This document shows positions 8,985 to 37,321 of a stretch of 64,000 bases of DNA, one piece after another. The stretch is from NCBI GenBank assembly GCA_000991245.1, contig LBRD01000002.1, positions 108,141 to 172,140 of the forward strand. The letters are read 5' to 3'. The stretch is from Parcubacteria group bacterium GW2011_GWC1_36_108. Its GTDB lineage: Bacteria; Patescibacteriota; Minisyncoccia; Moranbacterales; GWC2-37-73. How positions within the stretch are numbered: the stretch's first letter is position 1; each line of letters begins with the position of its first letter. The notes under the pieces were generated by a model. The model was not told the DNA's origin. It saw only the letters and a program-made list of their open reading frames with translations, and ran no database searches. The translations under genes were made by a program, and so were the position numbers.

Positions 8985-10506
8985 AATTAAAAATAAAAAA
9001 ACTCAATTAAATAATTTGCCTACGGCAGAATTTAACGGGGTAAATACAAAAAGGGGAAGTGCTTTGGCTATGGCCTTGGTAATGATTGTTATTGTTGCAA
9101 TCACTCTAACTTCACTTCTTGGATATATTTCATCTCAAATAAGATATAGTAAGGACAGGGTTGAGCGCGAGCGAGCCTTTCAGGTCGCTGAAGCTGGAGC
9201 TTATTATTATAGGTGGTATTTGGCACATCAAGTTTCAGGAAAAACTGCGGCTCAAATTGAGGATTTTTGGCAAACTGGAAATCCTATTGGAGTTACTGAT
9301 CCATATTCTGGAACTTTTAATGATTCAGAAAATATGCCTGTTGGGGAATATGAATTAAATGTTGATCCTCCTGGAGATGGTTCAACAATTGTGACTGTCA
9401 CATCCACAGGCTGGACCAATAATAAGCCGAATATTAAACGCACTGTACAAGTGAGATTTCGCAGGCCTTCTTGGAGTGAATATACTTTTTTGTCCAACAG
9501 TTTTTTGAATTTCGGAGATCAATCAACGGTGTATGGAAAAATTCATTCTAACGATGGAATTCGTTTTGACGGACTAGCTTATAACGTTGTTAGTTCTGCC
9601 AAGGCAAGATTTAATGACCCGTCTATTGGTGGGAGTTCTCTGGATTTCGGAGTTCATACAACGGTAACTCCTGCAGATGATCTTGCTCCCGCATATCCAT
9701 GGCCGCCAGGAACAGTTCCGGTTCGTAGTGATATTTTTATGGGAGGTAGAGAATTTCCAGTTCCTGAAGTTAGTTTTTCTGGTGTGGCTACTGATCTCGA
9801 TAATATGAAAGCTCAGGCGCAAGCAGGCAGTGGTCAGTATTTTGCTGCTATAGCAACAAGTAATGGTAAGCCAGGGGGACGGAGAGTTATTCTTAAAAAT
9901 GATGGCACCTATGATATTTGTGCAATAAGTAAAGCAAATGAAACAACGCATAGCATTTCAAAATATTGGAAAAATGATTTGAGCGGAACTTGCGATACTT
10001 GTAGCGGAGCTTGTGCGACGAATTATCCAATTATTAATAATGGAGTAATATTTGTGGAAGATAATATTTGGGTTGAGGGATCCATAAACAATAAAAGATT
10101 AACGATTGCTGCTGCCAATTTGTCCGGAGGGTCAAATCAGGCAGATATTTATATTGGAATAGGCAATGATAACTTGCGACTTGCTGCATATGATTGTGCT
10201 AATATGCTTGGATTGGTAGCGCAAAGGGATATAAGAGTCCTTAACTCTTGTCCAGAAGATTTTATTGTTGACGCTGCTTTGCTTGCTCAAACAGGCTTAG
10301 TAGGTATAGTTGGTGGTACATCTGGAACAAAAAATTCGTTAACATTTAATGGTGCGATATCATCATATTTACAAACATTCTTTTTTAATGGAACCAGTGG
10401 CTTTGATGACAGAACTTATAACTTCAATAATAAGCTCTTGGATTGTCCACCGCCATATTTTCCAACTGGCACAGAATATGCAATAGATCTTTGGGATGAG
10501 CTGTAA
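8962..10506 (+). CDS. PilX-N-like large minor pilin
   Basis: KRGSALAMALVMIVIVAITLTSLLGYI resembles the PilX N-terminal domain; 514 aa. Confidence 0.6.
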   Translation: MIMIESIKIKNKKTQLNNLPTAEFNGVNTKRGSALAMALVMIVIVAITLTSLLGYISSQIRYSKDRVERERAFQVAEAGAYYYRWYLAHQVSGKTAAQIEDFWQTGNPIGVTDPYSGTFNDSENMPVGEYELNVDPPGDGSTIVTVTSTGWTNNKPNIKRTVQVRFRRPSWSEYTFLSNSFLNFGDQSTVYGKIHSNDGIRFDGLAYNVVSSAKARFNDPSIGGSSLDFGVHTTVTPADDLAPAYPWPPGTVPVRSDIFMGGREFPVPEVSFSGVATDLDNMKAQAQAGSGQYFAAIATSNGKPGGRRVILKNDGTYDICAISKANETTHSISKYWKNDLSGTCDTCSGACATNYPIINNGVIFVEDNIWVEGSINNKRLTIAAANLSGGSNQADIYIGIGNDNLRLAAYDCANMLGLVAQRDIRVLNSCPEDFIVDAALLAQTGLVGIVGGTSGTKNSLTFNGAISSYLQTFFFNGTSGFDDRTYNFNNKLLDCPPPYFPTGTEYAIDLWDEL

Positions 10507-22816: not shown

Positions 22817-23068
22817 TGGACAGTTCCAATTGGATAAATCTTACAACTGTCCATATTAGCATATTTTTATGTAACTGTCAATGGTAATATTTAAAAAATG
22901 CCTTTAGAAAGCCTTTTCTTGGTGATTGTAATGCCTAAGTGCGCGTCGCAAGTTCGTCGACACTCACTTGTTCCTTGTCCGCGGCAGAGCTGAATGCTCC
23001 TATGGTCGCATTCATCTACGCACGCTGCGTTTACTTTCTGCTGAAAGCCAATTTGTTTCACTTCTGCC

Positions 23069-23088
23069 GGTCCGATTCCCCTTGGCGC
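23069..23088 (+). repeat. Inverted 20-nt copy of the tRNA-Glu 3' end (positions about 53-72), candidate att/recombination core
   Basis: GGTCCGATTCCCCTTGGCGC is identical to the complement of 28171-28190 inside tRNA-Glu; followed by CA and a terminator hairpin. Confidence 0.7.
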
Positions 23089-23096
23089 CAATACGC

Positions 23097-23124
23097 AAAA
23101 ACTCCAGATAAATCTGGAGTTTTT
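23097..23124 (+). terminator. Rho-independent terminator directly after the displaced tRNA-Glu 3' fragment
   Basis: aaaaactccaga-taaa-tctggagttttt perfect hairpin with flanking A/T runs. Confidence 0.7.
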
Positions 23125-23334
23125 GTACTTGGTAGCCCAAGTTAGAAATTCTTGGAACCAGCTTATTAGTGAGCTTAATGAGTGGGCTATGTTTAGGAGA
23201 CGGGAAATGTGTGCTGAAAATATGGCTCAGATTGGCGTATAACATTTCTTACCGTATCTGCCATTAAAGAATGAAACCATATATAAACCCCGTCTGACAT
23301 ACACAGGCGGGGTAATTAAATGGGATAAATTTTT

Positions 23335-23817
23335 TTACGTGTGTAATTTATGTATTAAACCCGTATCGAGAAGACGAATAGACATTGCTTGCTCACTGAC
23401 TTCGAACTTTTTTGCGAGCTGGTTAATTCCAATTTTTCCCGAGTGCTCCTTAATTTCTTTCTCAATAAATTGTTTTGGCATTAGTAATTCTGATGCGAAT
23501 TTATTTGCCTCCTTCTCCTTGTTTATTGGCTTATCAAATCTATCATCAACAATTGTATGGTCATCGTGTCCCATTAAAAAATGTCCTAGCTCGTGTGCAA
23601 GTGTAAAACGTTGTCTTACCTTGGGATGGTTTTGATTAACGCCAATAAATGTCATTCCTTCCTTGTGCATTATCATCCCGGAAACATTGTCAGGAAAATC
23701 TGGGTATGGAACAACTTGTATGTTGAATAATGCAGCCACTTCTTCAAGGGGCACAGGCAACTTTTCTAGTCCAATTTTAGCAATAATTGTATTAACTTTT
23801 TCTGAAATACCTTCCAT
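23335..23817 (-). CDS. ImmA/IrrE-family zinc metallopeptidase (anti-repressor protease type)
   Basis: HEXXH motif AHELGHFLMGH; DUF955-like; immediately downstream of the XRE regulator. Confidence 0.75.
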   Translation of the reverse strand: MEGISEKVNTIIAKIGLEKLPVPLEEVAALFNIQVVPYPDFPDNVSGMIMHKEGMTFIGVNQNHPKVRQRFTLAHELGHFLMGHDDHTIVDDRFDKPINKEKEANKFASELLMPKQFIEKEIKEHSGKIGINQLAKKFEVSEQAMSIRLLDTGLIHKLHT

Positions 23818-24134
23818 TATTTTTTGTTTATGTTTGACTTTGCATACTTAAAAAAATCAGCCGTTAGTTTATCGTAGTTGCACTCAGGGTCAAGACTGCT
23901 TGCATCCGCCCTAAATTGAACCATTGTGCTGTCATTAGAAAAATAATTTTCTCCAAGGTTGAATGTTTGAATTAGTTTATGCAGTGATTCGCCACTTAAG
24001 ACGCGGGCGCCCTTCTCAACGTACGAAATATAGGACTCAGAAAGACCTAGGGTTGTCCCTAGTTCGTGCTGTTTAAGTCCTTTTTCTTTTCTAAGTTGTC
24101 TGATTTTTTTACCTACAGAAGATTCTATATTCAT
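23817..24134 (-). CDS. XRE-family helix-turn-helix transcriptional regulator (CI/ImmR-like)
   Basis: KKIRQLRKEKGLKQHELGTTLGLSESYISYVEKG, a canonical HTH_XRE. Confidence 0.8.
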   Translation of the reverse strand: MNIESSVGKKIRQLRKEKGLKQHELGTTLGLSESYISYVEKGARVLSGESLHKLIQTFNLGENYFSNDSTMVQFRADASSLDPECNYDKLTADFFKYAKSNINKK

Positions 24135-24166
24135 ATGTACTTACATTTTTACACACTGTTAAACTA

Positions 24167-24181
24167 CTGTCAAGTCTTGAC
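24167..24181. promoter_or_regulatory. 15-bp perfect palindrome TGTCAAGTCTTGACA upstream of the XRE repressor gene (candidate operator)
   Basis: tgtcaag-t-cttgaca lies 33 bp upstream of the XRE start in the divergent control region. Confidence 0.5.
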
Positions 24182-24285
24182 ACTACCCATACAATTTAAA
24201 TGCCCTTATAGAGCCATTAGGAGCTAGCGGTGTACTTATTGATTTAAACGTTTTTGTTCTAGAATAAGGCAATATTTTAAAATTC

Positions 24286-24313
24286 TTGACAAACTTGACC
24301 AAGCTACTATAAT
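24286..24313 (+). promoter_or_regulatory. Consensus sigma-70-type promoter TTGACA-16-TATAAT driving 24416..24946
   Basis: ttgacaaacttgaccaagctactataat. Confidence 0.55.
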
Positions 24314-24415
24314 GAGGGGTAGGTCGAAACTTTTCCCAGTCCTTATTTTTCTCCTTATTAAGCCACTGGATATAATTTTAAAAAAGAGAACACAATTCGG
24401 GGGAAAATTGTAAAT

Positions 24416-24946
24416 ATGGCAATGAAATCCAAGTATGAAAAAGAAAAACTAAAAGCAAAAAATAAATATTTTTCCATTGGCAAGGTTTTTAACCCTGCTT
24501 TTGCAAAAGATATATATTTCAATGCTCAAGGCTTCAACCACCTTGTTTACGGTAAAGGTAATATGATGAGGAGTAAAGAGCAGCAGTTAGCCAGATTCAG
24601 GCTTTTAGATAAAGCAGTTGGGCTCATATCAAGCAATGAAGTGTTTAAGTTGAGCAAAACAGCAGACAGAGAAAAGCTTAAAAAAGGTATAAAGAAAATT
24701 AGCATTGAAAAACAATGGTGCTGTGACGGTGAGAAAAATGGCTCTGGTTTCAGGGTTATTTTGAGACAAAGGGACAATGGCAATATTCATTTTTTGAGTG
24801 TCATACCTCTTGGAAAAACTCAGACAGCATATTATCCATTCGCTTCATTGTTAGCTGCAATCCCAAATTTGCTATTTAAACGGCCTGAGCCGGCTCTTGA
24901 AACCGTAGAAATTAGTGAAGTTGAGACTGAAAATGAACCTGAATAA
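24416..24946 (+). CDS. Hypothetical protein (element cargo)
   Basis: 176 aa, lysine-rich N-terminus, acidic C-terminus; no motif recognised; followed by a terminator at about 24951-24979. Confidence 0.45.
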   Translation: MAMKSKYEKEKLKAKNKYFSIGKVFNPAFAKDIYFNAQGFNHLVYGKGNMMRSKEQQLARFRLLDKAVGLISSNEVFKLSKTADREKLKKGIKKISIEKQWCCDGEKNGSGFRVILRQRDNGNIHFLSVIPLGKTQTAYYPFASLLAAIPNLLFKRPEPALETVEISEVETENEPE

Positions 24947-25166
24947 ATATAAAAAAAAGCCGCCTAAAGCGGTTTTTTTCTATGCTTGCCTTCAATTAAA
25001 CTTGAAAAAGGCTTTCGCCTCACAAGCACATTCCTATAGTATCCCATAGTTAGTACTCTGTCAACAGAATTATATTCCCAAAGAGACATCTCGACAGAGT
25101 TGTTTTTTTATTGATTTTATTGTAAATTACATATGCAACGTCCAATTTAATAGGCTCTGTCTTTCT

Positions 25167-25688
25167 ATGGATAGAAGTAAGGTTGTGCTCGAAAATGGCA
25201 ATCTTACTAAAACAATTTGGCATAACCTGCTTAATTGGGCGTTGCAACCAGTAAGGTTGCCTTTTTTTATATCCAAAATTGCGACTTTGGTGGGGTATTT
25301 TTCTAATAATTTTTCAATAAACTATATGAAAGAACTATCCATTGTCGAAAAAATAACAAGTGATTTTTCTCAGGGCGTAAGCATATCAGTAATACTATTC
25401 ATAATTGGCGCGGCGTTTATTTTTAGCAGCCCACTGATAGGATTATTTTTATTAGTATCCGCATTTTTCATATACTCAAAAACATTAAGTAAATGGGGTC
25501 GAATTGAAAAGATGACCTCTAGCGTCTGGAGTGGAGTTAAGACGGCAGCAGTATTATTAGTGGTTGGAATGGTGCCCGGGATAATTCTCGAACTTATTTT
25601 TAAACCATTAGCACTGGGGTATTTCTTCTTTGTGATTGCAGCTGTTTATATTTTTTCTAAATCAATAACAAGGCGATGGAAAAAGTAA
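25167..25688 (+). CDS. Hypothetical membrane protein (element cargo)
   Basis: 173 aa with several hydrophobic segments. Confidence 0.45.
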   Translation: MDRSKVVLENGNLTKTIWHNLLNWALQPVRLPFFISKIATLVGYFSNNFSINYMKELSIVEKITSDFSQGVSISVILFIIGAAFIFSSPLIGLFLLVSAFFIYSKTLSKWGRIEKMTSSVWSGVKTAAVLLVVGMVPGIILELIFKPLALGYFFFVIAAVYIFSKSITRRWKK

Positions 25689-25945
25689 AGAAAGAATCGT
25701 TAGATGAAAAAGTTAAAAAGTACATCCTTATTTTTATGGCTGGTATGTTTGAGTTGGTGGCTTTAGATTTTTTTGCTGGAGCTAACGGCATCATTATTAT
25801 CAAGGATGACGGTCCACAATGGCCTTTCTATTTACTTGCTACAGTAGCGGGCATATTTCTATACATAGCCTTTAGGACCGGGGTTAAGCAAGGTTATGAG
25901 GATGGATTTACTGATGGAGAAAAATACAAGAATATTACATATTGA
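25676..25945 (+). CDS. Hypothetical small membrane protein (element cargo)
   Basis: 89 aa, two hydrophobic segments, overlaps the previous ORF. Confidence 0.4.
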   Translation: MEKVKKESLDEKVKKYILIFMAGMFELVALDFFAGANGIIIIKDDGPQWPFYLLATVAGIFLYIAFRTGVKQGYEDGFTDGEKYKNITY

Positions 25946-26502
25946 ATGCACTTACAATATGTGCCCGTCTGACAAGGGACACCGTCTGACATTATATTGC
26001 AAATCGTTTGTCAGCTTGTATTTATTTAATGCACGAAAATCAATCCATCAAAGGCTTATTCCAAAAGAGTTAGCTTCTTTTTTTTATCAGATTGTTATTG
26101 TTCTACTGTCTGACACAAACATTCCAATAAAAGCACACAAACAGTCGGTACTTGCTAGCCGGCACTGTTGCTGAGATTTATTTTTTTATTCAAGTTGAAT
26201 TGATTTCAAAAATGTGCAGACTTTCGAGGGGGTGGTAGGGGTGGAGCTAAACTTTTGGTCTTGGCACACGTGTTGTATACCGTTTCTGGCGATTATGATT
26301 TTGGAATTCAACTGTCTGACATTGACAAGTGGCAATTTTTCTGCTAAGTTAATGATAACAATTTAAGAGTAGTTAGCTTCACTTTCTAGACACTCACCCT
26401 CAAAAGTCACCCTCTAGAGTACTCAAGCCTGAAAATGTTTTTTCGAAAATATTCTCAGACTCGATTACTCTTTTTTGTTTCTTGTTTTTAACTCGAAACA
26501 AA

Positions 26503-26655
26503 TGTTTACTACTGAGAAGTGTTGTCGAATTGAGCCATCATTGAAGAATCTTTCCGAAGAAGAGGTTATTTTGGTTGAGGAAAATTATCGTGAAATGGTG
26601 AGACTTGCAATAGAAAGCTTCAAGAAAAATAAAAAGGGTTCCAAAAATCCCTGAT
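26503..26655 (+). CDS. Small ORF (50 aa) immediately upstream of the recombinase; possible accessory protein or directionality factor
   Basis: MFTTEKCCRIEPSLKNLSEEEVILVEENYREMVRLAIESFKKNKKGSKNP; below the ORF-track size cutoff; position suggestive only. Confidence 0.25.
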
Positions 26656-26694
26656 GGGTATTGTTGAATATTTACACGAGCGTACTATATAAAT

Positions 26695-28206
26695 ATGGAA
26701 ACAGAAAAAACAGGCATCATCTATTGCAGAGTATCCTCAAAAGACCAAGTTGAAGGTACTAGCTTGGGCAGCCAAGAAAGGTTTTGCAAAGAATATGCAG
26801 AACGTAATGGTATTAGGATTTTAAAAATATACATTGAGCTTGGTGAATCAGCAAAAACAGCTAACCGAACAGAATTTAATAAGGCCTTAGCATTTTGTAG
26901 TGACAAAAAGAATAATGTCACTTTTTTTGTTGTTTATAAGCTAGATAGGTTTGCACGAAATCAAGAAGACCACGTTATGGTTCGAGCTTTATTAAAAAAG
27001 GCGGGTACTGATTTACGTTCAGTTACGGAAACAATAGACGAATCGCCAGTTGGGAAAGCGATGGAGGGTATGATTTCTGTTTTTGCGGAATTAGACAATA
27101 ATATGAGAACGGAAAGAACTAAGCAGGGTATGCTGGAACGCTTAAAACAAGGCTTCTGGAACTGGCAAGCACCCCTAGGCTACTATCGACCTTACAAGGG
27201 TTCAAATATTGTACCTGACCCTCAAAAGAGCGGGTTTATACGACTTGGTTTTGAAGAATATTCCAAAGGCACATACACTTATGAAAAAATTGCACTGTTT
27301 CTGTCAGACAGAGGTTTAAGGACAAAACAAAACAAAAACCCATCAACCGCCCTTATGCAAAAAATACTTACTAATCCTATTTATTATGGGTATATTGATG
27401 TTTGGGGTGGACATAAAGGAGCCTTCGAACCTATTATTTCAGAAAACTTGTTTAGAAAGTGCCAACCTGACTATATGAAGTCGGCGCACGCAGCACCAAG
27501 GTCAGCAAACAACCCCTTATTTCCCTTGAGAAAATTAGTTATTTGCGATGAATGTGGGGCTTCACTCACTGGCAGTACATCAAGAAATAGGCACGGTTCA
27601 AAATATCCATACTATCATCACCAGCACGCTGGTTGTAAAAAAACAAGGTCAATCCCAAAAGAATCATTCGAACAGCAATTTGTTGAATATCTGGACAGTA
27701 TCTCTCCCGGTATTAAATATGAAAAACTATTCAAAGCTATCGTTTTGGATGAATGGCAAAATGGCTACAAAAAGATAGACAACGAAAATGCACAAATAAG
27801 AAGAGACATAACTTCATTAGAAGCTGAACGCCAAAAAGTCTTCGATTTTCATCGTGCAGGAAAGTATACCGATGATGACCTATTTGAGCAAAAAAAACTA
27901 ATCGAGGATAGGATAAGTCAAAAGCACGCCCTCATACAAGACAAGAGATATGAGGAGTTTGAAATGAATGAGGTGCTTGAATATTGTTTTTCCTATGTTC
28001 GAACCTCTGCAAAATCGTGGATTGAGGCTGATTATGCAACAAAACTAAGTTTTCAAAAGTTAATCTTTGCAGATAGCATAAAATATGATGGTGAGAAATT
28101 TGGAACCCCTGATTTAAGGCTCCTATATACGATAAATCAGCACTCGCGTGCTGATAAATCTTCTTTGGTAGCGCCAAGGGGAATCGGACCCCTGTTACCA
28201 GGATGA
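26695..28206 (+). CDS. Large serine recombinase (resolvase/invertase catalytic domain, recombinase domain, zinc ribbon, coiled coil)
   Basis: IYCRVSSKDQ (catalytic Ser), YKLDRFARN, zinc ribbon CDECGASL...C; 503 aa; last 41 nt overlap tRNA-Glu antisense. Confidence 0.85.
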   Translation: METEKTGIIYCRVSSKDQVEGTSLGSQERFCKEYAERNGIRILKIYIELGESAKTANRTEFNKALAFCSDKKNNVTFFVVYKLDRFARNQEDHVMVRALLKKAGTDLRSVTETIDESPVGKAMEGMISVFAELDNNMRTERTKQGMLERLKQGFWNWQAPLGYYRPYKGSNIVPDPQKSGFIRLGFEEYSKGTYTYEKIALFLSDRGLRTKQNKNPSTALMQKILTNPIYYGYIDVWGGHKGAFEPIISENLFRKCQPDYMKSAHAAPRSANNPLFPLRKLVICDECGASLTGSTSRNRHGSKYPYYHHQHAGCKKTRSIPKESFEQQFVEYLDSISPGIKYEKLFKAIVLDEWQNGYKKIDNENAQIRRDITSLEAERQKVFDFHRAGKYTDDDLFEQKKLIEDRISQKHALIQDKRYEEFEMNEVLEYCFSYVRTSAKSWIEADYATKLSFQKLIFADSIKYDGEKFGTPDLRLLYTINQHSRADKSSLVAPRGIGPLLPG

Positions 28207-28240
28207 AAACCTGGTGTCCTAACCACTAGACGATGGCGCC
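28166..28240 (-). tRNA. tRNA-Glu (anticodon TTC) with encoded CCA and G1-U72 wobble
   Basis: GGCGCCATCGTCTAGTGGTTAGGACACCAGGTTTTCATCCTGGTAACAGGGGTCCGATTCCCCTTGGCGCTACCA. Confidence 0.85.
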
Positions 28241-33427: not shown

Positions 33428-33545
33428 AATGTGTTCGATTCCCACTATTTCAATTATAATAAAACAAAACAAGGTCCCAAAAAGGACCTTGTTTTGTTTT
33501 ATTATGAGCCCCTTGTGCAACGATGTTCGAACTGGGTTTATGCAA
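33428..33545. repeat. Repeat module copy 1: degenerate tRNA-Gly T-loop copy (ttcgattcccactat) + 50-bp palindrome + 37-bp repeat B
   Basis: ttcgattcccactatttcaattATAATAAAACAAAACAAGGTCCcaaaaaGGACCTTGTTTTGTTTTATTATgagc, then cccttgtgcaacgatgttcgaactgggtttatg. Copy 2 of the module is at 36911-37004; copy 2 of repeat B is at 34813-34850. Confidence 0.65.
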
Positions 33546-33559
33546 AAGTGTTTACAATA

Positions 33560-33596
33560 ATAAAAAAACGGCTCTTCACTTTGCAGTGAAGAGCCT
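33560..33596 (-). terminator. Rho-independent terminator for the minus-strand islet genes
   Basis: ggctcttcact-ttgc-agtgaagagcc with a T-run on the minus strand. Confidence 0.65.
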
Positions 33597-33616
33597 AATT
33601 ACAGTTTACGGATCTA

Positions 33617-33856
33617 TTATTTATAGCCGTATTTTTTAAGAAAAGCATTTGAAGCCACTAAGGCAACAACAGCAATCCAGAACATTCTCCAGCTTATGGG
33701 TTGGATGAGATTTGAGAACCCGTCGTAAAGGCCACACATGAGCAATGTGCCCAAAACGAGTAACGACAGAACCATAACGGTGGCCGCGAGTAAAATTGAA
33801 ATTCTTTTCATTATGAGCACTCTCCTTTTTAACTGCCTTTTTGGTTTGTTATCCAC
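33617..33856 (-). CDS. Small membrane protein, hypothetical
   Basis: 79 aa, two TM segments. Confidence 0.4.
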   Translation of the reverse strand: MDNKPKRQLKRRVLIMKRISILLAATVMVLSLLVLGTLLMCGLYDGFSNLIQPISWRMFWIAVVALVASNAFLKKYGYK

Positions 33857-34671
33857 TCTTTCATTTCTATTATGAAATTCTTTCTTGCCCTGTAATAATC
33901 CTCGGGGTGTTTATTTTCTCCTTCCGCATTGAGAACTGATTCAATCTCCTCAATGTCAGCACAGGGAATCAAACCAGCTTCAAGCATATGGCGAAGATCA
34001 GTGAGGTCATAATTCCTCATTGATCGCAGCTTGTAGTAGGCTGTCTTGAGAGGACTTGCAACATTTAGTACACTACCTTGAAATTCTACAACTTCAGAAT
34101 AAAACCAATGTGCTGGCAATACTTTTTTGCCCCAACTTAATGGATTTCCAAGCTCGTTTCTTCTGATGATATGGACATTAATGAAGCTCAGTGACTTATC
34201 TTTTTGAATTAAGCCATTTTCATCAACGGCAATAATCCAGAAAAGGTAAGTGTCAGCCGTTGAAAATTCTTTCCAGTTAACTCTCTTCATGAACATTGTT
34301 TCTCGACTCTGAACTCCAAGCGTGACGAACAGTCCGTAACCTTTTCTCTCAATCCACTCTTGCAACTTTTCCAACTGAAACTCTTCTACTGCCAGATCAA
34401 GATCTCTGTGTTCTCCAATGAAATCACCTAGCAGAATGGAAACACTAAGACCGCCGTCAACTATCCAACTTAACCCAGAACAGTCAAAAAGTTTTTCCAA
34501 CTCGCATAACATTGTGATGATTTGAAGTTTTCTTTCCTTTGTTAAGACTACCCTGGTTCCATCTTCCAGGATTTTCTTTTTTTCAAAACCTCCCTGAAAA
34601 GGAAACGGTTGAAAAATATTATCCTTAGCGCAAAGCTTCTTTCCAGAAATCCTATTCAGTAAGTTTTTCAT
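33829..34671 (-). CDS. Nucleotidyltransferase, Lnu(A)/ANT(2'')-like fold (possible antibiotic nucleotidyltransferase)
   Basis: WIVDGGLSVSILLGDFIGEHRDLDLAVEE resembles the GG[WF]..D...G....HxD.D core of Lnu(A)/ANT(2'')-Ia; 280 aa. Confidence 0.55.
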   Translation of the reverse strand: MKNLLNRISGKKLCAKDNIFQPFPFQGGFEKKKILEDGTRVVLTKERKLQIITMLCELEKLFDCSGLSWIVDGGLSVSILLGDFIGEHRDLDLAVEEFQLEKLQEWIERKGYGLFVTLGVQSRETMFMKRVNWKEFSTADTYLFWIIAVDENGLIQKDKSLSFINVHIIRRNELGNPLSWGKKVLPAHWFYSEVVEFQGSVLNVASPLKTAYYKLRSMRNYDLTDLRHMLEAGLIPCADIEEIESVLNAEGENKHPEDYYRARKNFIIEMKEWITNQKGS

Positions 34672-34812
34672 ACATCCTCCCTTGTTGGTTTATTTAGTTT
34701 TAAAAGAATATATTAGTATATAGTAATAATATTAATTTGTCAAGATTATAAATAAATCATGAACATACCAAAAAACAGCTCAACAGAGCCGTTTTAAGTA
34801 AATTTGAGCCCC

Positions 34813-34850
34813 TTGTGCAATGACGTTCGAACTGGGTTTATGAGTCTGCT
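34813..34850. repeat. Repeat B copy 2 (cccttgtgcaatgacgttcgaactgggtttatg)
   Basis: About 90% identical to 33510-33545; direct orientation. Confidence 0.6.
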
Positions 34851-34862
34851 CGCCTTGATTAA

Positions 34863-36212
34863 CTAATTTTCCAATGTTTCATCATGAGAATCTAATTCTT
34901 CCAAATCTTTTTCGGATATACAAAGCTGTTCCAAAATCCAAATATGCCTGGAATTGCTTGGGTCATATTTTCCAACCGTAAATCGCTTAACTTCTTCAGG
35001 GTTATTTTTTATGACATTCCACACTCCGACATTTCCCTCTCTGTATACAATATCTCTTGTTAAGCAAGATCCTGGAGTGTCACAGGTGGTTCCACGAAAC
35101 GTTCTGACACAACGATTCCATGCTGTATTCTCTGCATATGTTTTAGCTTCGGATTCCTCTTTCTTAGAATTTATAAAATAGTAATCTTTCAATATTTCGT
35201 AAACTTCTCTAAAATTTCTTTTCCTTCCATCCATACCGAGAGCAAGAGATATGGCAAGATGCCCTTCAAGTCCAGCAAATTCATTCGCTCCTTCAATTTT
35301 TTGTTCTTCATATGTGGCAATGCCTTCTTCTCCCTTCAAATAACGATCTAATCCCAATCCTAATAGTTTTAATTTCGATCTTTCTCCATTTTCACGCCTA
35401 AGCACATGCGTTCCAATTTCGTGTTCAATTAGTGCAGTTAATTTTTTTTCACTCATTTTTCTATCCGTTGGAATATTGACAGTTTTATTTTCCTGGCTGA
35501 CTCCAATGGCTGTGAAATTATCGCCAATTAGAACCTCCCATCCTGATAATTTATATCTTTCCAGTGCACCTTCAAATGCATTTTTTATTTCTTCAGCCTC
35601 AAATTCAGTTTTTGGAAAATTGCCAGCCTCTGAACTTTCTTTCATGAAATCCCTTAATTCTGCAATATCTGAAGATGTGCTTTCAAAATAATCACCCAAC
35701 TCATTAAGAAGTCTTTGCGCGGAAATACGAATATTTTCATTTGGATCTTTTATTTTTTTATTTATAGTTTTCCTTATTTGATTCATAGTATAATCAAATA
35801 TTTCCTTCTCTGGTTGTCCATAAATAAATTTACTATAGCGAAGAAATCTTCTGTCATTTTCAGATTTTGTTTCCTTAAGCATTCTAAGTTCTGCAATTTT
35901 TGCATTAATTTTCCAGCGATAAGCTTGCTTCACAGTTTCATTGCTCTCTTGATCCAGAATATCTTTTTTAAGTTGTAACAAGTCTTGTTCCCTCTGATTA
36001 ATATTTATTTTTTCAAGATCGGGATAATCCAAAATAGGATTTTCACATTCACCCGAAATAAAAAGTTTCTTTTGATTATCTCTCAATCCTTTTTCTCCAC
36101 CCAGATATTCATAATCTTCAAAAGACCCGCAAGCACTAAATCTATCAAACCACTTATCATCCAAAGCCTCCCTTTTTTCTGCGATCACTGGCTGTTCAAA
36201 TTCAAATGACAT
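34863..36212 (-). CDS. DUF1704-like protein (HExxH metallopeptidase-like, QEGLA-type motif)
   Basis: LIEHEIGTHVLRRENG and GEEGIATYEE (QEGLA-like); 449 aa. Confidence 0.5.
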   Translation of the reverse strand: MSFEFEQPVIAEKREALDDKWFDRFSACGSFEDYEYLGGEKGLRDNQKKLFISGECENPILDYPDLEKININQREQDLLQLKKDILDQESNETVKQAYRWKINAKIAELRMLKETKSENDRRFLRYSKFIYGQPEKEIFDYTMNQIRKTINKKIKDPNENIRISAQRLLNELGDYFESTSSDIAELRDFMKESSEAGNFPKTEFEAEEIKNAFEGALERYKLSGWEVLIGDNFTAIGVSQENKTVNIPTDRKMSEKKLTALIEHEIGTHVLRRENGERSKLKLLGLGLDRYLKGEEGIATYEEQKIEGANEFAGLEGHLAISLALGMDGRKRNFREVYEILKDYYFINSKKEESEAKTYAENTAWNRCVRTFRGTTCDTPGSCLTRDIVYREGNVGVWNVIKNNPEEVKRFTVGKYDPSNSRHIWILEQLCISEKDLEELDSHDETLEN

Positions 36213-36258
36213 AAATTTTATTTATCAATTTATATGTAAAGTATAGCATAAACCTAAT

Positions 36259-36747
36259 TTATATAGTTTGCTTTTCAATAAATTTTTTAACAGCGATTAT
36301 ATCAATAAAATCTTCTTCTCTTGGGGATTTGCTTTTATATCTAATTAGATCTTTAGGTTTAATAACGGGAATAATAATTCCAAACACATCTATTAGATTA
36401 TATCTTAAAAAATTTGTTGAATCCTTGATCCAGACATTCTTTTTTCTATTGTATGTTTTTGCAAAAGTTCCGCCACCTATATCAATTTTTTGACCATAAT
36501 AATCTAGTCGGAGAAGCGTTAAATCAAAAACATCATCAATATAATGTTCTGGACCGAAGACAATAAATTCTTTAACATCGGAAATTATTTCTTTTAATTT
36601 ATCATCAGGGATGTCAAAATCAATATCACGAAGTTTCCTAGGGGAGCCGTAAAGTTTAGCCGAAAACCCACCTGCTAAAATAAAGGGGATTTCGTGCTTT
36701 TTAAAAATATTAACTATCCATCGAAATGCTTTTTCTGTTTTATTCAT
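36259..36747 (-). CDS. Nucleotidyltransferase, Lnu(A)/ANT(2'')-like (162 aa)
   Basis: IPFILAGGFSAKLYGSPRKLRDIDFDIPDD; Lnu(A)-like size and motif. Confidence 0.55.
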   Translation of the reverse strand: MNKTEKAFRWIVNIFKKHEIPFILAGGFSAKLYGSPRKLRDIDFDIPDDKLKEIISDVKEFIVFGPEHYIDDVFDLTLLRLDYYGQKIDIGGGTFAKTYNRKKNVWIKDSTNFLRYNLIDVFGIIIPVIKPKDLIRYKSKSPREEDFIDIIAVKKFIEKQTI

Positions 36748-36795
36748 ACGGAACTCTCAAAAAGATGGTATTTTTATGTATAAATTATACCATAG

Positions 36796-36815
36796 TTCGA
36801 TTCCCCCTACCCGCA
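36796..36815 (+). repeat. Inverted 20-nt copy of the tRNA-Gly 3' end (positions 53-72)
   Basis: GTTCGATTCCCCCTACCCGC on the + strand equals the sense sequence of minus-strand tRNA-Gly (37006-37025); followed by hairpins. Confidence 0.65.
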
Positions 36816-36894
36816 AAAATGAGAGGGGGAATCCTTCTCACCCAAACTTTCTCGCGAGTACGCAGAGAAAGTTTTCCTTCGAAGCCCGGGTTTT

Positions 36895-36921
36895 CAAAAA
36901 AGCAAAATCGTTTGCTTTTTT
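36895..36921 (+). terminator. Hairpin terminator (aaaaaagcaaa-atcg-tttgctttttt)
   Basis: Stem-loop plus T-run. Confidence 0.55.
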
Positions 36922-37004
36922 GAAATACCCTTCGATTCCCACTATATTCAATTATAATAAAATAAAACAAGGTCCTTTGAGGGACCTTGTTTTATTTTAT
37001 TATG
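36911..37004. repeat. Repeat module copy 2 (ttcgattcccactat + 50-bp palindrome) abutting the tRNA-Gly 3' end
   Basis: ttcgattcccactatattcaattATAATAAAATAAAACAAGGTCCtttgagGGACCTTGTTTTATTTTATTATgagc. Confidence 0.65.
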
Positions 37005-37076
37005 AGCGGGTAGGGGGAATCGAACCCCCCTCCTCAGCTTGGAAGGCTGATATAATAGCCACTATACGACACCCGC
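37005..37076 (-). tRNA. tRNA-Gly (anticodon TCC)
   Basis: GCGGGTGTCGTATAGTGGCTATTATATCAGCCTTCCAAGCTGAGGAGGGGGGTTCGATTCCCCCTACCCGCT; discriminator U. Confidence 0.8.
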
Positions 37077-37321
37077 CTTCGTCTCGTCATAGCTCGACTT
37101 CGGCGAGGTAAAACCCGCGAAGGAAAGCGACGGCGGAATTCGTTACACTTCGGCGGGCAAGCCCGCGCGACGCAACTCTTTTCGAACTCTTACTATTATA
37201 TATAAAAATAAAGTTTTGTCTAGGGCTGGTTGGTTGACATTTTTGTTTCTTTGCAATATACTCGGTAATTGAGTAATTTTAAAAAAGAATATTAAAATAT
37301 TTTCATAGGGAGGAATTACAG

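Follow-up and report, generated by a model that had tools for sequence, protein, structure and literature searches.

The stretch analyzed here, hereafter the window, comprises 64,000 nt of contig LBRD01000002.1 (positions 108,141 to 172,140 of the forward strand) from Parcubacteria group bacterium GW2011_GWC1_36_108. Between 33.4 and 37.1 kb of the window, directly downstream of a glycine tRNA gene, lies an islet of four minus-strand genes bracketed by nested repeats. This islet, the route by which its genes may have arrived and the structured elements that accompany it are our subject. An earlier reading, made from the letters and the open reading frames (ORFs) alone and here called the sequence-only reading, had described the gene block, and the ORFs are as it described them. 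The two nucleotidyltransferases, NT280 and NT162, are 100% identical to US57_C0002G0046 and G0048 of Candidatus Moranbacteria bacterium GW2011_GWC2_37_73. The genes and signals of the islet are:

33570–33595, minus strand: intrinsic terminator of the NT280/small-protein operon
33617–33856, minus strand: small hydrophobic protein, a 79-aa ORF (64 aa in public records)
33829–34671, minus strand: NT280, a nucleotidyltransferase of 280 aa in the PF10706 (LnuA/ANT(2'')) superfamily, extended at both its N and C termini
34715–34743, minus strand: promoter-like site of NT280, TTGACA-17-TATACT
34770–34805, minus strand: terminator downstream of the MATCAP-like gene together with AAGTAAATTT; a candidate P arm, kept beside GAGC in contigs L015 and L018
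34863–36212, minus strand: MATCAP/DUF1704-type HExxH metalloprotease-like protein of 449 aa with the motif HEIGTH (PF08014, 2.6e-29)
36259–36747, minus strand: NT162, a 162-aa nucleotidyltransferase of the minimal TM1012/LnuA type
37004–37076, minus strand: tRNA-Gly(tcc), whose last bases read GAGC on the plus strand and form a recurrent junction

The same neighbourhood was found in 24 of the 24 public contigs that carry exactly this NT280 protein. Moranbacteria contig L020 (GCA_028715745.1) is syntenic with the window, with VTT, abhydrolase, GT4, MPG and SOD on one side and NUDIX, FKBP and a giant protein on the other, and these flanks are 70–87% identical at the nucleotide level. From SOD to tRNA-Gly, L020 contains only a terminator, one copy of the repeat B described below (92–97% identical to both copies in the window), an unrelated 103-aa gene, three tandem units of the structured element Y, and the tRNA terminator. 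In contig L018 (GCA_041736215.1), B, a 97-aa gene and units of Y and of a second structured element, X, stand ahead of tRNA-Gly and NUDIX. Homologues of NT280 (74–83% identity) occur in three shorter contigs, L005, L015 and L017, behind an X/tRNA-fragment region like that of the window. The genes upstream of the homologue are an HD-domain protein in L005, none in L015, and a T4 gp30.3-like and a 101-aa protein in L017; in L005, relative to the window, the block from tRNA-Gly to the small protein is also inverted with respect to NUDIX.

Since the cargo differs among distant relatives, the islet is the present filling of a conserved variable slot and not a recent insertion peculiar to this genome, and its four genes are accessory. 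The sequence-only reading had taken the block for accessory cargo at a tRNA-linked recombination site, and this has held up, with the 103-aa gene of L020 and the 97-aa gene of L018 in the same slot. Comparison with relatives, which it had proposed, thus revealed other cargo in the slot, but the islet is not unique, its architecture recurring in L005, L015 and L017. The small membrane protein was also considered as a conserved partner of NT280; this was rejected, as no homologue of it was found downstream of NT280 in the relatives compared.

The islet is bracketed, and internally divided, by the following repeats:

33434–33509, plus strand: module A' (the SOD-side copy), with the T-loop-type TTCGATTCCCACTAT at 33434–33448, a 22-bp-stem hairpin at 33456–33505, and GAGC
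33506–33542, plus strand: repeat B1 (GAGCCCCTTGTGCAACGATGTTCGAACTGGGTTTATG), suggested here to be the P' half of a large-serine-recombinase attP
34806–34842, plus strand: repeat B2, which with the preceding arm would form a P-GAGC-P' (attP-like) junction between tandem cassettes
36795–36814, plus strand: frag1, which repeats the final 20 nt of tRNA-Gly (37006–37025) exactly but in inverted orientation and pairs with 36831–36843 as hairpin 1
36931–37007, plus strand: module A (the tRNA-side copy), with frag2, a hairpin at 36954–37003 that acts as a common terminator in both directions, and GAGC

Modules A and A' are identical over the 15/15 nt of TTCGATTCCCACTAT, differ by a 1-nt indel, and then match over 61 nt at 89%, a part that includes the perfect 22-bp-stem hairpin. 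B1 and B2 have 2 mismatches in 37 nt (the pattern for B being GAGCCCCTTRTGCAAYGAYGTTCGAAC). The same duplication, with A-GAGC joined to B at one end and to the tRNA at the other, is present in L018 with a different hairpin and with 53 nt at 100% identity, and equivalents of the frag1 unit were found in L005, L017 and L018. We read module A' as the original 3' flank of tRNA-Gly, forming the left arm of an attL-type junction. Across the 64 kb, no further copies of B, of the module A hairpin or of the TTCGATTCCCACTAT 15-mer were found except in true tRNA T-arms, and shuffled-sequence controls put the expected number of matches for these repeats at 0–0.1. With nhmmer finding one X and one Y, the idea that the repeats are ordinary terminator modules spread genome-wide can be dismissed within the window. 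The features that the sequence-only reading had described are all real, although its boundaries were off by 1–20 nt: the start of 36911 given to the tRNA-side module was 20 nt too far left, repeat B was displaced by 4–8 nt, and the inverted tRNA-Gly copy by 1 nt.

These repeats meet at GAGC, which on the other strand spans the final two acceptor bases of tRNA-Gly together with its discriminator and one base more. B is conserved as a 27–37-nt core in five genomes, L015, L018 and L020 among them, always directly after GAGC, and its flanks differ. The terminator and AAGTAAATTT-GAGC are followed by B2 in the window, by AGGTAGGGGGAATTC in L015 and by GGGTAGGATTGG in L018, the last two being tRNA-Gly half-sequences. 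Because the right side of GAGC is either a tRNA-Gly half or B, GAGC is a recurrent exchange point.

A second regularity lies in the position of a T-loop-type hexamer (T[CG]G[AG]AC), counted from the first base of the shared tetranucleotide, which is GAGC at tRNA-Gly and TAGC at tRNA-Glu. At the tRNA-Gly site the hexamer is found at nt 17 of the tRNA half and at nt 22 of B1 and B2 (TCGAAC), and at the tRNA-Glu site it is found at nt 16 of the tRNA half and at nt 21 of the left end of an integrated element. In large serine integrase sites, the zinc-ribbon-domain motif of attB is 5 bp nearer the centre than that of attP (Rutherford et al. 2013, PMC3783163), and the same +5 displacement separates B1 and B2 from tRNA-Gly and the tRNA-Glu element from its own target. 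With the hexamer pattern expected by chance at about 1 in 1000 positions, the same offset at two independent sites is unlikely to be accidental. The offset shared with an intact element, taken together with the published integrase rule, leads us to read B as a P' half-site.

The integrated element at tRNA-Glu has these parts:

23137–28172, plus strand: integrated element of 5,036 bp in the tRNA-Glu 3' end, with the 8-nt repeat TTGGTAGC at either boundary
26695–28206: large serine recombinase of 503 aa (Resolvase, Recombinase and Zn-ribbon domains), whose ORF overlaps the tRNA-Glu 3' end
28166–28240: tRNA-Glu

Its cargo includes an ImmA/IrrE-type peptidase (23335–23817) and an LPD3-domain protein, and its 503-aa recombinase has no relative in IMG/VR. 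The unoccupied tRNA-Glu site is present in L020, and the junction in tRNA-Glu falls at acceptor-end nucleotides equivalent to those of the tRNA-Gly junction. The 5-kb element went in between tRNA-Glu and an inverted copy of its 3' end, via TTGGTAGC. By analogy, this intact element in the same window serves as a model for the arrival of the tRNA-Gly cassettes and as a template for the mechanism proposed below. L020 also carries, at 1146–1351, an attL-type remnant made of a tRNA-Glu fragment, a hairpin, TTGGTAGC and ~200 nt homologous to the left end of the element. This remnant is followed by two genes without a recombinase and then by an intact Y-hairpin-tRNA-Glu arrangement, an architecture that is bracketed and recombinase-less like that of the tRNA-Gly islet.

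On balance, the evidence tips toward the region at 33.4–37.1 kb being the cargo slot of a recombination hot spot, in which cassettes were placed by a large serine recombinase at the 3' end of tRNA-Gly(UCC). Two tandem cassettes would be present, neither with a recombinase. Cassette 1 would be made up of B1, the small protein and NT280 with its promoter and terminator, and cassette 2 of B2, the MATCAP-like protease and NT162. At the head of each cassette, B would represent the P' half of a large-serine-recombinase attP, with the crossover inside GAGC. The A'-GAGC-B1 junction would then be of the attL type, joining the old tRNA flank to an element end; the B2 junction would be of the attP type, joining two elements; and the GAGC junctions of L015 and L018 would be of the attR type. 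The recombinase itself could have acted in trans or could have been lost since. Serial integration, proposed in the sequence-only reading, would in its tandem form be the best reading of B1 and B2, which bracket one cassette. The second module A could be accounted for in two ways. Cassettes could land in pseudo-tRNA half-sites made by insertion of X or Y; a direct case of such landing is seen in L015, in which Y units enclose an NT274 cassette whose ends are of the attL and attR types. The other option is that recombination among repeated X/Y units deleted the recombinase-proximal part. We infer both the serine recombinase as agent and the order of these events.

In several respects the islet resembles integrative elements of large serine recombinases (phiC31, Bxb1, A118/LI type), their decayed or non-autonomous derivatives included. 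It shares with them a short crossover identity (GAGC here, TTGGTAGC at tRNA-Glu) and hybrid junctions between host flank and element end, with the +5 motif on the element side (PMC3783163), and an intact example is found 9 kb off in the same window. It differs from them in that its cassettes are only 1.3–2 kb long, lack a recombinase and stand two in tandem with an attP-like joint. In addition, the tRNA is flanked by its own downstream module and not by a P arm, and pseudo-tRNA halves that head Y units are among the landing sites.

Several observations weigh against placement by a large serine recombinase. No recombinase gene was found at 33.4–37.1 kb, in the related loci, or in the window outside the tRNA-Glu element, and none stands beside B in the window or the related loci. 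An attR with a recognisable P arm was not found next to tRNA-Gly itself, which is instead flanked by the second module A and so is not the product of a simple attP x attB reaction; nor was a truly empty tRNA-Gly site found in the relatives compared. The left half-sites, both P and B, show little dyad symmetry, and the motif-offset argument is based on two sites. On the X side, the cassette ends coincide with T-loop boundaries and not with GAGC. Finally, the uniform surroundings of all 24 exact-NT280 contigs show no sign of ongoing mobility.

Another explanation is that no dedicated site-specific recombination is involved, and that a region rich in X, Y and tRNA halves is rearranged by homologous or illegitimate recombination and by gene conversion. 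B would in this case be some other functional site, such as a small-RNA 3' end or a protein-binding site, and A and A' would result from unequal exchange. The missing recombinase would then need no explaining. The copies of module A are 89–100% identical within a genome and their hairpins differ between the window and L018, which resembles concerted evolution; X and Y units stand in tandem, three of them in L020; and the inverted block of L005 points in the same direction. However, in five genomes the junctions fall precisely on GAGC, more than 20 tRNA fragments have their junction precisely at the T-loop, the same slot holds unrelated cargo genes, and homologous exchange would not explain a +5 offset that is shared with a bona fide large-serine-recombinase element. 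We regard general rearrangement as possible but unlikely.

The genomes of Candidate Phyla Radiation bacteria are very small and are believed to contain few mobile elements. If the cassettes were placed by a serine recombinase as proposed, the locus would reveal a logic of gene exchange in this group, in which very small recombinase-less cassettes land at a tRNA end.

The most unusual result of the analysis is the pair of structured elements, X and Y, each present once in the window:

36819–36950, no strand assigned: X, a three-helix element, with a degenerate direct tRNA-Gly 3'-end copy (...GAGAGGGGGAATC) on the left and frag2 (TTCGATTCCCACTAT) on the right
22901–23099, no strand assigned: Y, a GC-rich element and the sole copy in the window, ending in an inverted tRNA-Glu 3'-end copy at 23071–23090

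Pattern scans of contigs located 11 further copies of X in unrelated contigs, always in convergent orientation and immediately beyond the 3' end of a tRNA gene. X stands beside tRNA-Ser in L008, tRNA-Pro in L009 and tRNA-Leu in L010 (all metagenome contigs), and beside tRNA-Asp in L012 and tRNA-Gly in L013 (both Saccharibacteria). It also lies at the contig ends of L005 and L017 (metagenome), L011 (labelled Bdellovibrionales) and L014 (Moraniibacteriota), and a truncated copy is present in the Moranbacteria relative L018. The flanking genes differ in every case, and no recombinase, integrase or shared cargo was found beside the X copies. Beside tRNA-Gly, the window and L020 are homologous from 36928 onward; leftward of this point the window has X and L020 has Y.

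Each X is fitted to its own neighbouring tRNA. On one side it has a direct copy of the 3' end of that tRNA, always with the same T-loop start and with lengths of 17, 19, 23, ~31 and 68 nt, and on the other a 9–15-nt inverted copy of the T-loop and T-stem. Y terminates in an 18–20-nt inverted copy of a tRNA 3' half, which in the window (23071–23090) agrees with the tRNA-Glu 3' end at 19/20 nt and stands 5 kb away from that gene. The fragment ends fall exactly at the T-loop in more than 20 fragments, and the clustered control tRNAs have neither of the tRNA pieces that flank X. Random decay of duplicated tRNA genes was rejected as a source, as every fragment ends at one T-loop position. The direct copy in L010 is perfect and takes in 50 nt of flank. 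This cleanest X insertion (L010, 2072–2330) consists of a 120-nt X with a direct repeat of 68 nt, free of mismatches, on either side; each repeat joins the final 18 nt of tRNA-Leu to 50 nt of its 3' flank, in which the tRNA terminator lies. The 68-nt duplication, along with the alternation of X and Y, seems to point to recent insertion or exchange at the T-loop.

The helices of both elements are supported by covariation. For X, 96% of cells are paired and 12 pairs have changed on both sides, with 0/500 shuffles reaching the observed value and 33–62% of cells paired in slid controls; for Y, the corresponding values are 93% and 10 pairs, with 0/500 and 29–48%. Folding of Y as a single sequence is unexceptional (z -0.9). 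In Rfam, no family reached its gathering score for X or Y, only tRNAs passing, and Y had no match at E<=1, so that it could not be assigned to a known RNA. The L010 copy of X (2136–2250) aligns locally with the Rfam motif Clostridiales-1 (RF01699) at 29.4 bits and E 8e-5, below the gathering score of 48, over the closing stem and the conserved GAGC...GAAGC...GCGGA positions. X may thus be a distant relative of this orphan motif. Both elements contain few G:U pairs, and no sigma-70-like promoter was found upstream on the strand with the sense tRNA piece. The Y of L020 (2642–2834) lies ~30 nt from the unoccupied tRNA-Glu and is near-identical to that of the window over ~170 nt, and the surrounding genes are 76–87% identical, which would suggest either strong constraint or recent exchange.

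X and Y share with repetitive extragenic palindromic (REP/REPIN) and miniature inverted-repeat transposable element (MITE)-like repeats a short length (~100–170 nt), repetition, intergenic placement and hairpins kept by compensatory changes. Unlike these, they always stand beside a tRNA gene and are capped by sequence of that tRNA, with a direct copy of 17–68 nt and an inverted copy of 9–20 nt that both end in the T-loop. X also has neither the fixed terminal inverted repeats nor the fixed-length target duplication of MITEs and insertion sequence (IS)-derived elements. An origin from IS200/IS605- or MITE-type elements was rejected, as the flanking duplications are target-derived and 17–68 nt long.

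Tentatively, X and Y could constitute a class of structured elements, so far undescribed, that accompany tRNA genes in Candidate Phyla Radiation bacteria and in which a conserved scaffold may be followed by ~12–20 nt copied from the T-loop-to-3' end of the neighbouring tRNA. They may be non-coding RNAs with a variable 3' segment that acts as a tRNA-half mimic or guide, a layout resembling OMEGA/TnpB scaffold-plus-guide RNAs and the homing RNAs of CRISPR-associated transposons. They may also be a new miniature mobile element that enters tRNA T-loops and copies its target. Either option, if true, would provide more tRNA-like landing sites and thereby organise the cassette slot at tRNA-Gly. The two elements are more conserved than the neighbouring genes, have covarying helices, are tailored to each tRNA and are absent from Rfam; as true RNAs or as mobile elements that read tRNA genes, they would offer a new handle on tRNA-linked genome plasticity.

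In the sequence-only reading, the inverted copies of tRNA positions 53–72 were scars of serial integration or excision, and the two enzymes were lincosamide- or aminoglycoside-modifying cargo. All tRNA fragments do start in the T-loop, which is a classical crossover sublocation of tRNA-targeting integrases, and NT280 does pass the PF10706 cut-off. But the fragments are inverted and not direct relative to the tRNA gene, the tRNA-Glu inverted copy is unchanged beside an unoccupied tRNA-Glu in L020, and integrases and shared cargo are missing near the X copies. Because Y and its fragment stand beside the unoccupied tRNA-Glu in L020, and X stands beside tRNA-Ser, -Pro, -Leu and -Asp with unrelated neighbours, the inverted copies are not scars of the islet. 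They are the ends, or caps, of the conserved X and Y, a layer separate from the islet. Of the parallel drawn with tRNA-Glu, the 19/20-nt inverted copy stands, but its reading as a scar of the same class of element does not, as it belongs to Y. We consider the scar and drug-resistance account improbable, and its enzymatic half is taken up below.

The islet also calls to mind the classical tyrosine-integrase islands of tRNA genes, which likewise have variable accessory genes directly 3' of the tRNA and fragments starting in the T-loop. In the present case, however, a tyrosine integrase is absent, the long exact copy of the tRNA lies in inverted and not direct orientation, and the bracketing repeats consist of the tRNA downstream flank plus B and not of the tRNA 3' end. 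A classical island with direct att repeats was accordingly rejected, on the orientation of the copies and the absence of an integrase. An integron cassette array with attC sites was rejected as well, with no IntI present and with box sequences and order that are wrong: the palindromic junctions, which derive from the tRNA, open with GTTCGAT and close with ATCGAAC, where attC would be expected to read RYYYAAC...GTTRRRY. A phage origin was also rejected, since the patterns for X, B and Y gave 0 matches in IMG/VR, blastn against phages gave one irrelevant match, and PHROGs and PADLOC returned nothing for the islet cargo.

Both nucleotidyltransferases have the minimal nucleotidyltransferase fold, with the G-G/S...D-x-D motif and a third carboxylate. 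NT280 matches PF10706 (Aminoglyc_resit) at 35.1 bits, above the gathering threshold of 21, and has the invariant residues D90, D92 and D150. NT162 falls below this threshold at 16.2 bits, and the precomputed PF10706 match of its homologue P0019 is marked 'faint'. Against the NCBIfam models for Lnu(A), Lnu(E) and Lnu(P), NT162 scored 18.8 and 16.1 bits and NT280 17–23 bits, far from the cut-offs of 300–350. The family profile of NT280 matches LnuA at E 4.6e-5, with the alignment confined to the catalytic motif region, and MenT1 at E 0.18; that of NT162 matches LnuA at E 2.3e-4. In structure searches, the NT280 model (predicted local distance difference test score, pLDDT, 85.5) had MenT1 as its top Foldseek match, and the NT162 model (pLDDT 82) matched TM1012 at E 1e-9 and a TM-score of 0.75–0.78. 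Relatedness between the two families is marginal (hhalign E 0.0015), and both are very small, with 15 matches for NT280 and 5 for NT162 among 5.8 billion proteins, and homologues of both enzymes are also found in ordinary chromosomal contexts. An NT162 homologue in L007 (5655–6135) is split over two frames and, as called, lacks the GG...DxD region; it is probably a pseudogene.

With Lnu(A)/ANT(2'')-Ia (PF10706), TM1012 and MenT, NT280 and NT162 share the two-domain minimal fold, the G-G/S...D-x-D motif and the third acidic residue. Identity over the structural alignments is nevertheless 13–20%, the similarity is limited to the catalytic motif region, and NT280 differs from Lnu(A)/ANT(2'')-Ia by extra N- and C-terminal segments of ~45 and ~70 residues. 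The sequence-only reading was right, by profile and fold, that the nearest relatives are LnuA and ANT(2'') and not the minimal nucleotidyltransferase (MNT)/AbiEii families, and profile searches placed neither enzyme among the toxin MNT families; the label 'drug-modifying' is unproven, however, the Lnu models scoring 17–23 bits where 300–350 are required and the LnuA similarity covering a catalytic motif region of ~60 residues. The catalytic motifs of NT280 and NT162 are intact, and both probably function as active nucleotidyltransferases within the fold group of LnuA/ANT(2''). Their substrate may be an antibiotic, a tRNA end or another molecule. In fold, the tRNA-modifying MenT toxins come almost as near to them as the resistance enzymes do. 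With antibiotic-modifying enzymes and tRNA-modifying toxins as the closest solved relatives of such rare nucleotidyltransferases, either outcome would be informative for episymbiont biology.

It is very improbable that NT280, NT162 or both are toxins of the MenT kind, extending tRNA acceptor ends with added nucleotides, with the X and Y RNAs as decoys or antitoxins: X and Y do contain acceptor and T-stem sequences, and an MNT-HepT fusion gene lies near X in L008, but neither enzyme matched the hidden Markov models of AbiEii (E<=1), NTP_transf_2 or PF01909/PF18765, the NT280 profile reached only E 0.18 with MenT1, there is no AbiEi/MenA-type neighbour at the locus (the neighbours being the small membrane protein and the MATCAP-like protein), PADLOC was empty, X/Y are missing from the loci of NT280 homologues in L004 and L006, and X is in turn found where there are no nucleotidyltransferases. 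The fusion gene of L008 (4280–5119; nucleotidyltransferase plus HepT RNase) is located ~800 bp from the X beside tRNA-Ser.

Some further features of the locus can be added. The 449-aa MATCAP-like protein scored 91.7 bits against TIGR02421, under the cut-off of 338. Between tRNA-Gly and NUDIX, L020 encodes a 222-aa protein (9197–9865) with an N-terminal HTH_23/HTH_28 domain of the transposase type, which is absent from the window. The 3' CCA is encoded by tRNA-Glu (28166–28168) and not by tRNA-Gly (37004–37006). The promoter of tRNA-Gly lies at 37195–37222, and one more feature separates it from the gene:

37077–37190, no strand assigned: GC-rich block of ~110 nt between the tRNA-Gly promoter and the tRNA, absent from L018

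L018 has only ~10 nt in its place. In the window, tRNA-Gly would carry a long structured leader from this block, which holds a Y-like GACGGCGGAATTC motif.

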